Below are positions 6,685 through 64,000 of a stretch of DNA of 64,000 nucleotides, in pieces (within the stretch, counting starts at the first letter, position 1; each line of letters begins with the position of its first letter). A model generated the notes under the pieces. That model was not told where the DNA came from. It was given only the letters and a program-made list of their open reading frames with translations, and made no database searches. The stretch covers positions 142,846 through 206,845 of the forward strand of contig JAUSED010000009.1 of NCBI GenBank assembly GCA_030650425.1. Reading direction: 5' to 3'. The position numbers and the translations under genes were made by a program. Origin of the DNA: Candidatus Omnitrophota bacterium. GTDB taxonomy: Bacteria; Omnitrophota; Gorgyraeia; Gygaellales; Profunditerraquicolaceae.

Positions 6685-8287
6685 TAGTTACCGCTGAAAA
6701 ACCCCGTTTATGATTACGCGGGTTAGAAGACAAGATTCTACACTCTGTTTTTATTGTTTGTTTTATTTATTTTTTGTTTTTTCATCCCGTTCATTGAAAA
6801 TCCTTGCCTTTAGCCGTATGCCGTAGCAGTTTTAAGGTTCATTGCCATAAGCCCTAAACGTATCCACATCTCTTCACCATCGGGAATATGGTAACGAATA
6901 CGGTCAAGGCCGTATTTGCGCTTAGCCAGGCTTATCTTTGCTTCAATAGAGCACCTTAAGCGGCGTAGGCGCTCCCTAAAAGGCTTGTGCTCTAGATAAG
7001 AGGATTTACCTTTATTCTCAATGGCAATTTTAGAGATATTTTTCTCTTCGGCCAAGAGGTAATTCTTTTTTGACCAGAATCCTCTGTCGGCAGATAACTG
7101 GCTGGGGTATGATCCAAAGCGTTCTTTGTAAGCGTCAATAGCGGTTCCTAATAAGTTTGAGTCTGAGATATTGGCGAAATTTAAGCTTTCTAAAAAGAGG
7201 CACTTGTTTTTAAGGTTAAGCAGGATTTTTGGCCCAAACTCAACCTCAACCGGGTATTTGCCCCTGACCATAGGCCGGAGATGCGGCTTATGCACAGAGA
7301 CGATGCGTTCCTTTACCGGCAGGCCATGATAAACATCTTTTTGCTGGGTAAGGATTGTACTGGCGGTATCTAGAAAACGTTGCGCCTCTTTGATAAATTC
7401 ATCCTTGGCTTTATCGGCAGTATTCTGATTGGGAGCGGAGATGTTATCCGTTGCTTCCTTAAGCTGGTTTATGTTCCTGCGGGAGAATTGCAGGAGTTTT
7501 CTCTGCGCTCTCCCGCGTGATTGCTTGGTATGATGCCTGATCTTTTGATAGGTGATAAATACTCTTCGAGCTGTGCGTTTGTAGGTGCGGTATGCCTTGG
7601 CGCCGAATTGTTTGGCAGTCTCCAGGTATTTTACCGCTTTCCGGCGCACCTTATCCAGCAGTGACACATCTGTAGGATAGGCGATATCAGCAGGCACAAC
7701 CGTAGTGTCGCAGACTAACCGCCTGCCTTTTAGGAGCCTTGTTCTTTGTAAACTTTTGAAGACTTCCTGTTCAATAAGCTTTACTCCTTCAACGCCGATC
7801 TGCTTCCTGAACTTGCTTAAGGTTGAAGGGTTGATAAAATTCTTAGCCTCTTTAAGAGAGACATCGCAGAGGTATTGAGCATAGATATCACGCTTGATAA
7901 GATCAACCAGTCCGGCATCTGAGTAACGGTATAAGTGCTTTAAGATTAACAGCCCGACCTTGGCACGGGATGGCTTGGCTGGACGGCCGTTATCAGCGCA
8001 ATAGAAACGGGAGAGCTTCTCTGATACCGACACCCAGTCTATTGCCTTGGATATCTTGATAAGCTCGTGGTTTTCATCAACTTCTGGAACGACGAACCAG
8101 TCGTGGGTGAAGCTAAACTGATGCTCTTCTGATTCTTTGGTATACATTTTTTAGGCCTCCTCATTTGTGGTTAAATGCACGATTCTCGACGATATTATAC
8201 CAAATTCCGTGCACTTTGAGGAGAATTATTACAACTATTTTTAACCACTCTCGTCGATAAACATCGAGGGTTTTTCAGCGGTAACTA
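6685..8287 (-). mobile_element. IS1182/IS5-family insertion sequence with 20-bp terminal inverted repeats
   Basis: tagttaccgctgaaaaaccc at 6685..6704 and its exact reverse complement at 8268..8287 flank the transposase ORF. Confidence 0.85.
6810..8147 (-). CDS. IS1182/IS5-family transposase (InsH-type N-terminal domain plus DDE)
   Basis: 445 aa; N-terminus FTHDWFVVPEVDENHELIKISKAIDW...YSDAGLVDLIK matches the InsH/DUF772 N-terminal domain. Confidence 0.8.
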   Translation of the reverse strand: MYTKESEEHQFSFTHDWFVVPEVDENHELIKISKAIDWVSVSEKLSRFYCADNGRPAKPSRAKVGLLILKHLYRYSDAGLVDLIKRDIYAQYLCDVSLKEAKNFINPSTLSKFRKQIGVEGVKLIEQEVFKSLQRTRLLKGRRLVCDTTVVPADIAYPTDVSLLDKVRRKAVKYLETAKQFGAKAYRTYKRTARRVFITYQKIRHHTKQSRGRAQRKLLQFSRRNINQLKEATDNISAPNQNTADKAKDEFIKEAQRFLDTASTILTQQKDVYHGLPVKERIVSVHKPHLRPMVRGKYPVEVEFGPKILLNLKNKCLFLESLNFANISDSNLLGTAIDAYKERFGSYPSQLSADRGFWSKKNYLLAEEKNISKIAIENKGKSSYLEHKPFRERLRRLRCSIEAKISLAKRKYGLDRIRYHIPDGEEMWIRLGLMAMNLKTATAYG

Positions 8288-16786: not shown

Positions 16787-16899
16787 GATTAGCTAAATAA
16801 AGTTAGATACAAGCCGTAGCGGACACTTAAATGTCCGCTACGATTACAATAAGGCTATCTTTTAGAGTAGGTACCCATAATAAATACGGCGTTAAAACT

Positions 16900-16915
16900 C
16901 GGTAAGTTTAAGTAA
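16900..16915. repeat. Left 16-bp inverted repeat bracketing the DUF134-LAGLIDADG-HTH module
   Basis: cggtaagtttaagtaa; exact reverse complement at 18316..18331. Confidence 0.8.
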
Positions 16916-16922
16916 GCTTCTT

Positions 16923-17249
16923 ATGCAGACACGCGGCAGGCCAAAAAAATACAGGATAGTGCATCTTGACCCTAAAATAAGCCAGTTTAGCCCAAGGGGC
17001 AGGCCCGGCAGGCCTAATGAAGTGGACCTGAGCATGGATGAATTCGAGTCATTACGGCTGGCTGATCATATGGGATTACCGCAGAAAGAGGCAGCTAAAT
17101 CCATGCGTATATCTCAACAAACCTTTAGCCGGATATTAAAGAGAGCGCATAGAAGCATTGCTAACGCATTAGTTAATGGCAATACCATAAGAATACAGGG
17201 CGGCCATTACGTAATCAGTTCCCGAGAAGAGAATGAGAAAACTATCTGA
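16923..17249 (+). CDS. DUF134/UPF0251-like HTH DNA-binding protein
   Basis: PRGRPGRP...LSMDEFESLRLADHMGLPQKEAAKSMRISQQTFSRILKRAHRSIANAL (sigma-70 region 4-like HTH). Confidence 0.65.
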   Translation: MQTRGRPKKYRIVHLDPKISQFSPRGRPGRPNEVDLSMDEFESLRLADHMGLPQKEAAKSMRISQQTFSRILKRAHRSIANALVNGNTIRIQGGHYVISSREENEKTI

Positions 17250-17895
17250 CTTAAGCAAAGAAAAATTAACCAGCCTATACCTTAACGAAAAGAAATCCAT
17301 GGGAGATATAGCTAAAATCTATGGCGTTTCCCGGACAGCGATATATAAAAGACTGAAAATATATGCTATAAAACAACGTTCTAAGTCAGAAGCAAGGATT
17401 GAAGCACAGAAACAAGATAAACTTCCCCAATTAATTGAGAAGGTTAAAAAGGTTACTGGCTCAGAACATAAAATAACGCCATCTAGACACCAGAAAGGAT
17501 TATATTACTTTCATTTCGCCAGAGAAAAACTTGCGGCGGATTTAGCGAAACTCGGTGTTTTACCCAGAAAGAGCCTAACAGTCAAATTCCCGCAGGTTCC
17601 AGAAAAACACCTGGCTGATTTCATAAGAGGAATCTTTGACGGTGATGGCAGTGTGTTCTTTGATAAGCGCCGGCCAAAATTCCCCTTACGATCAAAGTTT
17701 GTTAGTGGTTCGGAGGCCTTTATAGAAGGATTACAAAAGGCCATTGAAGATTATTTAGGTATGCCTAAAAGGACAATTTATAAACAAAAAACCAAGAATG
17801 GATGGAGTCATATGTTTATATATGGACATAAAGACAGCACAAAATTGTTTGAAATTTTATATAAAAATACCCAAAATGGGCTATTTAGAACGTAA
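17233..17895 (+). CDS. Free-standing LAGLIDADG-family homing-endonuclease-like protein with N-terminal HTH
   Basis: LAGLIDADG motif FIRGIFDGDGSV; N-terminal HTH MGDIAKIYGVSRTAIYKRLK; overlaps upstream gene by 17 nt. Confidence 0.7.
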   Translation: MRKLSDLSKEKLTSLYLNEKKSMGDIAKIYGVSRTAIYKRLKIYAIKQRSKSEARIEAQKQDKLPQLIEKVKKVTGSEHKITPSRHQKGLYYFHFAREKLAADLAKLGVLPRKSLTVKFPQVPEKHLADFIRGIFDGDGSVFFDKRRPKFPLRSKFVSGSEAFIEGLQKAIEDYLGMPKRTIYKQKTKNGWSHMFIYGHKDSTKLFEILYKNTQNGLFRT

Positions 17896-17945
17896 ATACA
17901 ACCGTTTTTTAGAGGGTTTAAAAGGAATTTAAGGAAGCATATACT

Positions 17946-18131
17946 ATGGATGGACGGCTTAAAGAATGGGTAGATTGGCATAAAGGACAGATTAGCAGTT
18001 TCCACACCAAGGACTTAGCGGCAAATTTAGGAGTTTCAACCCGGACAATTCAACGCTGGATAAAAGAACAGACAAAGCCCAAGGAAGATCAATTACAGAG
18101 AATCACGCAGTACGTAAAGGAAAACAGTTAA
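17946..18131 (+). CDS. Small HTH protein
   Basis: LAANLGVSTRTIQRWIKEQ helix-turn-helix. Confidence 0.45.
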   Translation: MDGRLKEWVDWHKGQISSFHTKDLAANLGVSTRTIQRWIKEQTKPKEDQLQRITQYVKENS

Positions 18132-18315
18132 AGGGGAAGCACAAAGGCAATTAACCGATAAAAACAGTCGGTTTTCTTATATGCTTGTATGTCGCACAAG
18201 TGCCCATAATATATCTTATGTTAACTTCAACATATTGGCTAATCTGCTCTAAAGCCTTGGTTGGTAATGGGTTGAATGAGGCCTGTGTTTTCCTGTGGAT
18301 AAGCACTTTTTCATT

Positions 18316-18331
18316 TACTTAAACTTACCGC
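18316..18331. repeat. Right 16-bp inverted repeat (partner of 16900..16915)
   Basis: ttacttaaacttaccg is the reverse complement of cggtaagtttaagtaa. Confidence 0.8.
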
Positions 18332-18406
18332 CTTCTTTTAGGCTTAACATTTCTGGGAAGATTTATAGATGAAACTACCGGGATTTTTTGGCTTTAATCG
18401 CCTATT

Positions 18407-19510
18407 TTATCTACGGGTTAAAATAACTTGGCTGGGATAAATTGTACCATCTCCAAAACGAGCGTTAATCCTATCTACTGCCTTCACCAAAGCCTCTCTT
18501 CGTTTTTCCTCAACTAATAAAGGAAGGTAGCCTTGCCGGCTTAAACCACTGGCAGTTACTCCCAGAGCCCGGATTTTATGGCCTTTTTTGGACATCCTAG
18601 CCATTATTTTAAGGGATCTCAGGTAGATCTCATAACTATCATTAGTGGCCATAGAGAAGGTTTTTTGGGCCTCAACATTGCCTATCTGTGGGCCATTTAG
18701 CCAAAGGTGAACCGTCTTAGCGGTCAGGCTTTGCTGGCGCAGACGCTCACCAACCATCTCAGATAACAGCCTAATCCAAGCAGTAATAAACTGGGGGTTT
18801 GCAAAAGCCCTTGGTAAGGTATATGAATGGCTTATAGACTTAGGGTACTTTTGAGTTTCCTCGGTTTCCTCAAACTTACCGGGATTTGCATCAAAGAATT
18901 CCGGTAAGTTTAGGTATACGTCCCAACAGGTTTTTAAGCCTTGAGCTCTTAAGCTTTGGCCGGTTTTGCCAGCCATCCCGCAGAGTTTCTCAAGCGGAGC
19001 GCGGCTTAGAATCTCCTTAAAATTACTCTCATCGATTAAAGTTATACCTTTTGGCTTATTAATTTTAGAGGCGAGCTTGGCTAAAAGCCAATTTTTAGCA
19101 ATACCAACCGAAGCAGTGATATTAAAGTTTGCATATATCTGCGCTTGAATTTGGACAGCTAATTGAAGCGGTTCAGAATAATCCTGAAGATCCATCTGGA
19201 ATTCATCCACTGAAGCATAATTCAGGCTGAAGCCGTAACCCTTAAGCAGCTCAAAGATCTGCTCTGAGGTCCAAATATACTTACCTTGGCTAGCCGCCAC
19301 AAATTCCAAATTTGAGCAAATACTAAAAGCTTCCCTTGAAGGCATACCGGAATGAATCCCTAAACGCTTGGCTTCATAACTGGCGGCGCAAACCACGGTA
19401 TGCATTTTATTAGCGCGCGAACCGATAATTAAGGGTTTATCTTTAAGGCGCGGGTTAATCGCCTGTTCAATTGAGGCAAAAAACGCATCCATATCAATAT
19501 GCAGGATCAT
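18407..19510 (-). CDS. dinB: DNA polymerase IV (Y-family)
   Basis: MILHIDMDAFFASIEQ N-terminus and overall Y-family architecture. Confidence 0.85.
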   Translation of the reverse strand: MILHIDMDAFFASIEQAINPRLKDKPLIIGSRANKMHTVVCAASYEAKRLGIHSGMPSREAFSICSNLEFVAASQGKYIWTSEQIFELLKGYGFSLNYASVDEFQMDLQDYSEPLQLAVQIQAQIYANFNITASVGIAKNWLLAKLASKINKPKGITLIDESNFKEILSRAPLEKLCGMAGKTGQSLRAQGLKTCWDVYLNLPEFFDANPGKFEETEETQKYPKSISHSYTLPRAFANPQFITAWIRLLSEMVGERLRQQSLTAKTVHLWLNGPQIGNVEAQKTFSMATNDSYEIYLRSLKIMARMSKKGHKIRALGVTASGLSRQGYLPLLVEEKRREALVKAVDRINARFGDGTIYPSQVILTRR

Positions 19511-19531
19511 ACTTAAACGAACCCGAGATTT

Positions 19532-19840
19532 TTATTGGATTATTTTATCAATCTGCCAGCGGAAGGTGGAATTATTAAATGATATTTGATAGAGCTGGCC
19601 GGCGCAAGCTACCGAAAAGTAATTGATTAAGGCCTGGCCAAAGCGTTCCTGCCAGTTATAGGTTATGTTATCGATCTTGTATTCCTTATTATTCCAAAGG
19701 AAAGTTTTAGGATAAATCCTGGCGTGCTTAAAATATGCCAGGACTTCGATACGTTCGGATAGATCATCCGGATTAAAACCGCATTTTTCCGGCTCAAACC
19801 TGTCCCAGCGAGCTTTAGGATTAAAACTATTTTGGTTCAT
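19532..19840 (-). CDS. Hypothetical protein
   Basis: 102-aa ORF downstream of the KilA-N gene, same strand. Confidence 0.3.
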   Translation of the reverse strand: MNQNSFNPKARWDRFEPEKCGFNPDDLSERIEVLAYFKHARIYPKTFLWNNKEYKIDNITYNWQERFGQALINYFSVACAGQLYQISFNNSTFRWQIDKIIQ

Positions 19841-19858
19841 TTTTACAAAGGCGTCAAC

Positions 19859-20674
19859 TCATCTCCTTAGCTTTCTTACCCCTCGATCATCGGTAAGTAA
19901 TTTCATCTGTTGAATGGCAATTCTATTCAGCTTTAATAATCTTTCTTCCTGATTAAAGTTTTCGCTAATAAATAAGGCGTTTAAATTCTCAAGATTTGAA
20001 AGACACACTAATTGAGATATATCAGCATAATCTCTAATGTTGCCCTTCTTCTCGGAATTTTTATCGCGCCAATCTCCGGCTGTCATACCAAACAAAGCCA
20101 TATTCAAAACATCAGCTTCTGAAGCATAAATATTATTTATTTGCGCTTTTGTAAGCTCATCAGGAATCAAATTTTCTTTTATGGCGTCAGTATGTATACG
20201 ATAGTTAATTTTTGTAAGATTACGCCGAATATCCCAACCAAGCTGTTTTAGTTCCTGATCTTTTAAACGCTGGAATTCCTTAATGAGATAAAGCTTAAAC
20301 TGAGGCGATATCCAAGATGCGAACTCGAAAGCAATATCCTTATGGGCGTAGGTGCCGCCGTTTCGGCCAGATTTAGATATTAATCCAATCGCGCTCGTTG
20401 TCTCTATCCATTTTTGCGGAGATAATACAAAGTAATTTACCCCAGCTTCATTCCTAAACTGGTCGAATTCGACCAGTTTAAAACCGGAATTGTTTAATTT
20501 CTCCCATAGGCCCAAAAATTCAATAGTACTTCTGCTTCGTAACCAATTTTTAACAATGTCAGCAGGCGCATCGCTATTTCTGTATTTGGCGATATCAGTC
20601 AGAGATATGTAACTCTGCTGTTCTCTGGATATTATGGAAATATCTCTACCTTGAACGTATAATATTTCTGCCAT
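19859..20674 (-). CDS. KilA-N domain protein
   Basis: N-terminus ILYVQGRDISIISREQQSYISLTDIAKYRNSDAPADIVKNWLRSRSTIEFLGLWEKLNN matches KilA-N. Confidence 0.7.
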   Translation of the reverse strand: MAEILYVQGRDISIISREQQSYISLTDIAKYRNSDAPADIVKNWLRSRSTIEFLGLWEKLNNSGFKLVEFDQFRNEAGVNYFVLSPQKWIETTSAIGLISKSGRNGGTYAHKDIAFEFASWISPQFKLYLIKEFQRLKDQELKQLGWDIRRNLTKINYRIHTDAIKENLIPDELTKAQINNIYASEADVLNMALFGMTAGDWRDKNSEKKGNIRDYADISQLVCLSNLENLNALFISENFNQEERLLKLNRIAIQQMKLLTDDRGVRKLRR

Positions 20675-20804
20675 TTTATCTTTAGCTCCTCTTTTAGCTT
20701 TGGCTATCTTTCCTCTTTTTGTACTATTTACCCTTATGTCTACCTTTTCAAGGGAAAATCATGATTACTGCTTAAAAACTGTTCAAATGTTTGGACCCTG
20801 GCAG

Positions 20805-60090: not shown

Positions 60091-60820
60091 ATAGGAAGAG
60101 ACTGTTCAATATTAAAAGCGCCCCTAAAATTATAATGAAAATGATAACGGCGGCAGTATCTTTGAAACTAAACTCTTTTTCTCCGGAGATATTCCGCGTC
60201 GAACCGTCGTATCCGCGCAGCAGCATAGATTCATATACCGCGATCGAGCGATCATAGGCCCTGATCACGGTTGAGCCCATTAATTCGCCAAAAGATTTCA
60301 AACTCCGGCCTAAACTGCTGTATCCTAAACGCGCTCTTTGGGCATTCCTGATCGTAACCGCGTCCTCCAGCAATACAAAGCTGTAGCGATAACTAAGCAT
60401 AGCTATCTCAACCCAGGTATTCGGCACTTGAAACCAGCGGGCCGCATGGAGCAGCTTATTTACCGGCGTGGTCATCGATAAGCATATAATTAAAGAAACG
60501 GCGCCTAAGACCCTTGCCACAATTAAGAAACCGGCTGCCAATCCATCGGCCATTCCATAAAAGAAGATCTGCATAATAAAAATCGCGCCTACCACACCCA
60601 AGGGGACGGCTAATCTAAGTAGAATAATCTTCGGCGGTATGCCGATCCCTAAAAGGATAACCAAAGATGAGAAAAAAACAATCAATGGCAGATAAGCATT
60701 ACGCGAAGAAACTACGATCATTATAGCCGCGGCTATAAAAAGCGCCTTGGCTCTCGCGTCCACCTCCGTTAAATAGTTTACCTTTTGAGCAAAATGATCA
60801 CTAAATACTTCGTTCAGCAA
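60080..60820 (-). CDS. cbiQ: Cobalt ECF transporter T component
   Basis: Multi-TM CbiQ pattern; 7-nt overlap with cbiM-N start. Confidence 0.7.
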   Translation of the reverse strand: MLNEVFSDHFAQKVNYLTEVDARAKALFIAAAIMIVVSSRNAYLPLIVFFSSLVILLGIGIPPKIILLRLAVPLGVVGAIFIMQIFFYGMADGLAAGFLIVARVLGAVSLIICLSMTTPVNKLLHAARWFQVPNTWVEIAMLSYRYSFVLLEDAVTIRNAQRARLGYSSLGRSLKSFGELMGSTVIRAYDRSIAVYESMLLRGYDGSTRNISGEKEFSFKDTAAVIIFIIILGALLILNSLFLSSF

Positions 60821-63293: not shown

Positions 63294-63343
63294 AGTTTAT
63301 TCTTGATAAATAGATAAATAGGGACAGCGCCCATTTTTTTAGC

Positions 63344-64000
63344 TTAACGAACAGAAAAAAAATGGGCGCTGTCCCTATTTATCCTACAGCTGTTAATAAA
63401 GTTTTTAGCGAAATCCGTATTAGAGGCAAAATGCAGATGCGCGTAGCTGGCTAAAACGTTCTTAGTGACTAAACCGTCGTAAAATAGATTATCCTTGTCT
63501 TTGATGATTCTATAGGCAAAGGTAGAATTTTTAGGAATATTCGTAAGGCGCGACCAGTGGAAGAGATGCGCCCGATTTCTATCACCTTGATTACTCAATA
63601 TATTATCTTTGATCACCTGTACATTCACATAACCCATCCTATGCAACCTGTTACCCATATTCACTGAGCATTTAAATACCCCCACCATAGGGAATTTTCT
63701 TTTTTGGAAATCGATTAAATTTTTGACTAAATACATTAATCCGCCGCATTCGGCATAGATCGGCAGGCCATCTTTAGCTTTTTGATAAATCGACTGCCTG
63801 AGGCTTGCGTTCTTCGATAAATCAGAGGCAAAAACTTCCGGAAACCCGCCGCCAATATATAAACCATCGATCCCCTTCGGTAATTCCCTATCCCTCAAGG
63901 GGCTAAAGGTAACAATCTCTGCCCCCAAATGCTTCAATATATCCAGATTGTCCTGATAATAAAAATGAAAAGCCTTATCCTTGGCAATCGCTATCGTCAC
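63344..64000 (-). CDS. cbiA: Cobyrinate a,c-diamide synthase, 3'-partial (glutamine amidotransferase domain only; N-terminal part beyond window end)
   Basis: KDKAFHFYYQDNLDILK...GLYIGGGFPE...AECGGLMYL GATase-1 pattern; ORF open to the window edge. Confidence 0.75.
   Translation of the reverse strand: MTIAIAKDKAFHFYYQDNLDILKHLGAEIVTFSPLRDRELPKGIDGLYIGGGFPEVFASDLSKNASLRQSIYQKAKDGLPIYAECGGLMYLVKNLIDFQKRKFPMVGVFKCSVNMGNRLHRMGYVNVQVIKDNILSNQGDRNRAHLFHWSRLTNIPKNSTFAYRIIKDKDNLFYDGLVTKNVLASYAHLHFASNTDFAKNFINSCRINRDSAHFFSVR

Follow-up and report, generated by a model that had tools for sequence, protein, structure and literature searches.

We analysed a stretch of 64,000 nucleotides (64 kb; hereafter the window) of contig JAUSED010000009.1 from the Candidatus Omnitrophota assembly GCA_030650425.1, in which a perfect 16-bp inverted repeat surrounds a small operon and, directly behind it, the chromosomal dif site, at which Xer recombination resolves chromosome dimers. 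The left arm of the repeat, CGGTAAGTTTAAGTAA, is located at 16900-16915 on the plus strand and its exact reverse complement at 18315-18330 on the minus strand, with 1,399 bp between the two 16-mers. The operon was confirmed to consist of three open reading frames (ORFs) on the plus strand, which encode a small helix-turn-helix (HTH) protein of family DUF134 (PF02001; 16923-17249), a protein with an N-terminal HTH and a LAGLIDADG_3 domain (17233-17895), and a 61-aa HTH_3 protein (17946-18131). A hairpin followed by a T-run, resembling an intrinsic terminator (18153-18173, plus strand), ends the operon ahead of dif. The perfect repeat and the three genes had already been described in an earlier interpretation of this DNA (the sequence-only reading), in which the right arm was placed one base off, at 18316-18331. 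That interpretation missed the key context of the locus, namely that a chromosomal dif, at the replication terminus, lies between the repeats.

The dif site occupies 18199-18226 on the plus strand (AGTGCCCATAA-TATATC-TTATGTTAACT). It has a single mismatch to the bacterial dif consensus, DBBBCSBATAATRTAYATTATGTHAANT (an 11-bp XerC arm, a 6-bp centre and an 11-bp XerD arm), and is the only match to this consensus in the 64 kb. It is identical to the dif sites of E. coli and B. subtilis at 23 and 22 of the 28 positions, respectively, the two reference sequences being confirmed in PMC3025954. The cumulative G-C skew over these 64 kb of contig rises from 4 to 18 kb, reaches its peak at 18 kb, where dif is located, and falls monotonically to 64 kb, and both the genes and the purine-rich k-mers converge on dif. 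As dif lies at the maximum of the GC skew, the window spans the replication terminus, and 18199-18226 is the chromosomal dif at this terminus. A tblastn search of the window with E. coli XerD as the query revealed no tyrosine recombinase. A reading of a conserved block past the HTH gene as a promoter driving a noncoding RNA that would end in the right arm was rejected, as the supposed promoter is dif itself.

The proteins of the window were mapped onto 62 loci from species-representative genomes. The same order of genes recurs across many Omnitrophota species, with GH57, p200, ParA/CBM48, p143, Zn68, DUF134, LAGLIDADG and HTH on one side, facing dinB, p102 and LexA on the other. In at least 24 loci dif is found approximately 1.1 kb past the start of the LAGLIDADG gene, and each locus has one match to the dif consensus.

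Comparison between species revealed that the arms share the motif RGTAA-N5-RGTAA, in which two half-sites lie 10 bp apart; the half-sites (4-5 nt) are invariant and the 5-nt spacer is variable, with no covariation between the arms. In 14 species, both arms occupy the same two places on the chromosome. The left one, on the plus strand, falls within the 5' leader of the DUF134 operon and in nearly all species follows a -10-like CATAAT at a distance of 19 nt; in the window the motif reads GGTAAGTTTAAGTAA (16901-16915) and ends 7 nt ahead of the ATG. The distance from the left arm to the DUF134 ATG varies between species from 1 to 26 nt, whereas its distance to the promoter block is constant. The right arm is on the minus strand and lies 87-88 nt past the XerD arm of dif in all loci that have it. 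With the left arm on the plus and the right arm on the minus strand, both copies point towards dif. Read as its reverse complement, the right arm agrees with the left arm at 10-15 of 15 positions across species, and 15/15 is reached only in the window and in locus L064 (GCA_041643315.1), its closest relative, which shows approximately 85-95% nucleotide identity along the locus. The exact 16/16 match in the window thus reflects that both arms happen to have the consensus form. In L064 both 16-mers are perfect, though the bases flanking them have diverged.

The frequency of such repeats was estimated from 300 dinucleotide-preserving shuffles of the 64 kb. A perfect 16-mer inverted pair anywhere in the window is expected 1.18 times and occurred at least once in 55% of the shuffles, so that the earlier statement that a chance pair in 64 kb is very unlikely does not hold at this scale. 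Within 2 kb, however, such a pair is indeed rare (expected 0.047; 3% of shuffles). The full RGTAA-N5-RGTAA motif is found in two copies in the window compared to 0.48 expected. The real support for the repeat is comparative, since both 16-mers are kept in L064 and the motif is kept at the same two positions in thirteen further species. Several other identities of the motif were considered and rejected. It is not a LexA (SOS) box, since no copy precedes the recQ-lexA operon or occurs at other places in the window. It does not behave as a polar motif of the type of FtsK-orienting polar sequences (KOPS), as AAGTAA and TAAGTAA are not skewed genome-wide and skew is seen only in purine-rich words. 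Neither is it the leader of a small minus-strand ORF past the right arm, as this ORF, which has 21 codons in the window, is absent in L002 and L020.

Further copies of the motif are associated with dinB. A weaker copy (19510-19523, minus strand) abuts the dinB start codon (GGTTCGTTTAAGT-ATG), and better copies are found at the dinB start in L064 (CGGTAAATTTAAGT-ATG) and L073 (CGGTAAGTTTAAGT-ATG). In addition, a hairpin-like palindrome inside the dinB coding sequence (18866-18917) holds two copies of the 16-mer with two mismatches each, at 18866-18881 on the minus strand and at 18902-18917 on the plus strand. This palindrome sits at a deletion in the DinB of this lineage compared to other Omnitrophota; it is common to the window, L064 and L075, the only loci in which it is present, and is absent from distant relatives. 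Overall, the extra CCGGTAAGTTT-type copies in or at dinB are limited to the sub-clade formed by the window, L064, L073 and L075, and could have originated by local gene conversion or as a small regulon.

The right arm is embedded in a larger conserved structure. On the XerD side of dif approximately eight conserved blocks (18227-18350) are arranged without any indel in 22 species, forming a 135-bp indel-free stretch of which the right arm is one block. The blocks include CAACATATTGG (18228-38), AATGGGTTGA (18266-75) and CCTGTGGATAAGC (18292-18304), the latter containing a perfect DnaA-box-like TTATCCACA on the minus strand, and other members of the array are the right arm, a tract rich in T and GCTTAACAT (18342-50). 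Only the fifth position of the TTATCCACA in this block varies between species, and several copies of TTATCCACA are also present upstream of the LAGLIDADG gene in L022 and L023. In L065 (JGI Ga0315274_10018284), radical-SAM, NIL and AMP-binding genes are found to the right of dif in place of dinB and LexA, and both the array and the right arm are retained, indicating that the array follows dif rather than dinB. RNAalifold gave no consensus pairs (0) for the region from dif to the arm in the 22 species, and no Rfam match came near the gathering score.

A dif-anchored scan of metagenome contigs gave 13 loci, 11 of which have the arrangement DUF134-dif-dinB without a LAGLIDADG or HTH gene and still carry both arms at their usual positions. 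As these empty loci keep both arms, the repeats bracket DUF134 and dif rather than the three-gene module. The LAGLIDADG-HTH pair is a presence/absence cassette between DUF134 and dif, separate from the repeats, and the corresponding indel is bounded by the 3' end of DUF134 and by the XerC side of dif. Empty sites, which had been proposed in the sequence-only reading, do exist in the form of these cassette-less loci, but their ends are not at the repeats. Empty and occupied loci interleave in the DinB, ParA/CBM, DUF134 and LexA trees, with the empty loci L073, L074 and L075 as sisters of the window and L064, both of which are occupied.

The nucleotide identity between the window and L065 is 73% for DUF134, 89% for the LAGLIDADG gene (with one 60-nt stretch at 100%), 79% for the HTH gene and 74% for the right flank, and the identity jumps sharply at the start codon of the LAGLIDADG gene rather than at the left arm. 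That the LAGLIDADG gene is more alike than its flanks, with the jump at its start codon, is a signature of horizontal transfer of the cassette. Comparison of the window with L064 showed a divergence hot spot at 17930-18223 (62-68% identity compared to 85-95% elsewhere). It comprises the HTH gene, the terminator and the XerC arm, and dif marks its exact end, a pattern that suggests an allelic replacement with a breakpoint at dif.

The LAGLIDADG protein shares 100% identity with a protein from a Candidatus Omnitrophota MAG, and of its more than 400 homologues nearly all belong to Omnitrophota. In intact homologues of approximately 276 aa, an N-terminal YlxM-like HTH precedes the two motifs, YVLGLIITDGC and FIRGVFDGDGSV; each motif has an invariant or nearly invariant catalytic Asp, with TDG and DGDG kept, and the best match in the PDB is 2DCH, a putative homing endonuclease (E=1e-5). 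The gene in the window (17233-17932, with the ORF at 17233-17895) is degenerate. An in-frame deletion with its junction near 17430 has removed about 49 aa, motif 1 among them, and a 2-nt loss in a T-run near 17880 shifts the frame and truncates the C-terminus; the conserved C-terminal tail, GYLERKYNRFLEGLKGI, is still encoded in another frame, to 17932. In view of the deletion of motif 1 and the 3' frameshift, what was previously taken for a free-standing single-motif LAGLIDADG protein is a decayed copy of a two-motif protein. The two motifs of a homing endonuclease are thus present in the intact 276-aa homologues and not in the window copy. The L064 copy (277 aa) is intact, and degenerate copies with deletions or frameshifts were also found in L026, L027 and L033. 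Taken together, the pattern resembles the cycle of gain, decay and loss of free-standing homing endonuclease genes, with DNA cleavage as a putative activity.

The XerC arm of dif differs between the two types of loci. Empty loci have an invariant XerC arm, AACTTCCTATAA, and a dif that matches that of B. subtilis at 25 of 28 positions, and in occupied loci the XerC arm is variable and the 8-mer TGTCGCAC stands ahead of it. In the window this 8-mer is located at 18190-18197 on the plus strand, directly outside the XerC arm. Of the 22 loci with the 61-aa HTH gene, 21 have the 8-mer, compared to none of the 18 loci without the gene, and on the basis of this co-occurrence the 8-mer and the 61-aa HTH protein, the partner gene product of the cassette, are likely a protein-site pair. 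In no occupied locus was there a second site that has the XerC arm and centre of the chromosomal dif, and the identification of the cassette as an integrative mobile element that exploits Xer (IMEX) was rejected, as no second dif-like site bounds it. One may speculate, with a probability that we consider low, that the cassette is a homing element specialised on the Omnitrophota dif, which would cut chromosomes lacking the cassette at, or close beside, the invariant empty-type XerC arm AACTTCCTATAA, whereupon repair would install the cassette together with a cleavage-immune XerC arm and the HTH-bound TGTCGCAC. The host DUF134 gene and the RGTAA array would then simply flank the target site.

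DUF134 is the conserved left neighbour of dif in cassette-bearing and empty loci alike. In its promoter region (16863-16898, plus strand), the conserved palindrome TTATGAGTA-N-TACTCATAA is present in degraded form, overlaps the -10-like CATAAT (16876-16881) and is followed by the conserved GGCGTTAAAAC. The spacing of ATAAT...GTTAA in this region is weakly dif-like, also in empty loci, and canonical TTGACA-N17-TATAAT promoters are found just upstream in L004, L012 and L027. A Pfam scan of the proteins of the module identified only HTH, DUF134 and LAGLIDADG_3 domains, and searches of PDB and NCBIfam with DUF134, the 61-aa HTH protein and the 102-aa protein gave only sub-threshold matches. To our knowledge, the DUF134 family has no known function, and in the literature we found nothing that links LAGLIDADG genes or DUF134 to dif.

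Based on these observations, we propose that the two arms are copies of one cis-element that is bound, as DNA, by a single protein, with DUF134 as the candidate, and that the left copy would serve as an operator and the right copy as a block of the dif-side array. We assign a probability of roughly 0.55 to this interpretation, which corresponds best to the paired operators considered as one option in the sequence-only reading, given two phased half-sites at a fixed position relative to the promoter or to dif. One sequence-specific DNA-binding protein would recognise both RGTAA-N5-RGTAA copies through half-sites that lie one helical turn apart. Binding of the left copy would make it an autoregulatory operator of the DUF134 operon, and this copy has both the conserved half-sites and the fixed position relative to the promoter that are expected of an operator. 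Binding of the right copy would help to build a spacing-locked nucleoprotein architecture at the XerD side of dif, which may act, for example, as an accessory or organising complex for Xer recombination; a polar barrier to replication forks or to read-through from dinB is a less likely role for the right array. DUF134 is the best candidate for the binding protein, since it is the constant neighbour of dif, has the left copy in its own leader, and the arms persist in loci without the other two HTH-bearing genes. Recognition of the DNA by a protein also fits better than recognition of RNA, in view of the two short phased half-sites, the free spacer and the fixed spacing to the promoter and to dif.

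In their geometry, dif and its array resemble the plasmid sites cer (with ArgR/PepA) and psi (with ArcA/PepA), in which a 28-bp dif-like core is located beside approximately 150-180 bp of conserved, spacing-constrained DNA to which proteins bind. Several points nevertheless weigh against the proposed role. The known accessory sequences of cer and psi are on the XerC side and on plasmids, whereas the array described here belongs to a chromosomal dif, located at the skew switch, and lies on its XerD side. The invariance of GTAA...GTAA in the 14 species is partly a matter of construction, as a regular expression was used to find the arms. Some loci have a single arm, namely the left one in L004 and the right one in L012, and in L005 and L016 the right arm is present without an adjacent DUF134 gene, so that the binding protein may be another one, or a DUF134 protein encoded elsewhere. 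Furthermore, the extra copies at dinB fit a small regulon or an element acting at the RNA level as well as they fit a role in the architecture of dif.

Such an RNA element is an improbable alternative. A plus-strand transcript of the dif-right region containing UUACUUAAACUUACC would pair with GGUAAGUUUAAGUAA at the translation starts of DUF134 and dinB, or an RNA-binding protein would recognise the sense motif. The motif does directly abut the start codons of DUF134 in L007 and L033 and of dinB in L064 and L073, and dif contains a TATAAT that could act as a -10 element. The distance from the left arm to the ATG is, however, 1-26 nt and it is the promoter distance that is fixed; two short half-sites are conserved rather than a contiguous seed; and the operon terminator precedes dif. 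There is no consensus structure and no Rfam match, nor were a conserved -35 or a terminator call obtained. The mismatches between the arms, which lie in the spacer, are wobble-compatible for two plus-strand transcripts in 20 cases compared to 10 for the opposite orientation, but this bias is not significant (p=0.10) and 12 of the 42 mismatches are transversions that break pairing. A somewhat smaller probability still is given to a fork trap, a special case of protein binding in which the arms would be inverted polar Ter-like sites flanking dif and bound by the neighbouring DUF134 protein. In Tus/TerB of E. coli and in RTP with IR-I and IR-II of B. subtilis, the gene of the terminator protein has one of the sites in its own promoter region. 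Similarly, the Omnitrophota locus has a gene for a small DNA-binding protein at the terminus and composite sites with tandem half-sites, inverted around dif and both pointing inward, one of them in the leader of that gene. The Pfam scan of the module proteins, however, showed no homology to Tus or RTP; there is one site per side in 64 kb, the left and right sites are only 0.5-1.4 kb apart, and some species have one arm only. The exact distance of 87-88 nt to dif, within a larger indel-free array, would also be left without a reason. The arrangement belongs to neither the Tus/RTP nor the cer/psi systems.

Two further explanations are both very improbable. In one option of the sequence-only reading, the three genes would form a mobile or homing element of 1.43 kb with the arms as its terminal inverted repeats. 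A perfect 16-bp pair within 1.4 kb (p ~0.03-0.05) that encloses a LAGLIDADG gene would agree with this, as would the polymorphism and horizontal exchange of the LAGLIDADG-HTH pair. Neither a target-site duplication nor a transposase was found, the flanks being ...gttaaaact/CGG... on the left and ...CCG/ccttctttt on the right (the slash marks the edge of the repeat) without a direct repeat. The arms are kept in empty loci, where they bracket only DUF134 and dif; the identity jump between the window and L065 is at the LAGLIDADG start codon instead of the left arm; and the arms enclose dif, an essential chromosomal site, at the same positions in all species and without other copies in the 64 kb. 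The terminal-repeat interpretation is for these reasons not retained. Equally improbable is a similarity that arose by chance or by a recent local gene conversion without function. A 16-mer inverted pair is expected about once in 64 kb, and the additional copies inside dinB and next to it suggest that sequence was copied locally in this lineage, but the conservation of both positions in 14 species with fixed spacing to promoter and dif, and the perfectly kept arms in L064 between diverged flanks, argue against it.

The cassette on the XerC side shows its own similarities to known systems. Like free-standing homing genes such as the seg and mob genes of T-even phages, known from intronless homing, it is intergenic beside a highly conserved sequence and shows presence/absence polymorphism, mosaic identity and degenerate copies. 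Unlike those genes, it is located at a bacterial chromosomal dif instead of in a phage, intron or intein, and a YlxM-like HTH forms the N-terminus of its LAGLIDADG protein; the inverted repeats do not belong to this homing-like cassette. WhiA of Gram-positive bacteria is a domesticated transcription factor with LAGLIDADG and HTH domains, in which the catalytic residues have been lost and the HTH is C-terminal. The family described here shares with WhiA a two-motif LAGLIDADG scaffold and an HTH in a chromosomally conserved bacterial protein, but differs from it in having the HTH at the N-terminus, in the retention of both catalytic Asp residues and in gains and losses of the gene among close relatives. 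IMEX elements (CTXphi, TLCphi and the gonococcal genetic island, GGI) and insertion sequences of the IS1202 family are known to target dif (PMC5357621, PMC10132070). As in those cases, a variable cassette lies directly against dif, here on the XerC side, and the divergence hot spot ends exactly at dif; in contrast to them, there is no second dif-like site and there are no phage, insertion sequence or transposase genes.

If these interpretations are correct, the replication terminus and dif of an uncultured phylum have been identified, and this dif would be embedded in a conserved, spacing-locked array of protein-binding blocks beside a dedicated small HTH gene. The chromosomal dif of model organisms needs no accessory DNA, and the organisation would thus be unusual for a chromosomal dif. 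DUF134 would gain a testable role. The gain and loss of a LAGLIDADG cassette at the XerC side of dif would represent a new route for selfish DNA at the terminus, beside IMEX phages and dif-targeting insertion sequences. In the present case, a perfect short inverted repeat around a LAGLIDADG gene was not the boundary of a mobile element.

Some other features of the window were observed. A KilA-N gene (19859-20674, within approximately 19823-20800) between p102 and lexA is an insertion, as it is absent from the otherwise collinear L064, and a short perfect palindrome lies inside this gene (20455-20480), with another one at 60721-60738. A second perfect inverted repeat, of 20 bp (TAGTTACCGCTGAAAAACCC), is located at 6685-6704 and 8268-8287 and encloses 1.56 kb. 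Towards the other end of the window, a dispersed repeat family, (C)GTAGGGGACACTTTCC(AA), is present in at least 12 copies in both orientations between 46918 and 61254, and a perfect 28-bp hairpin with a 15-nt loop was found at 63313-63383.

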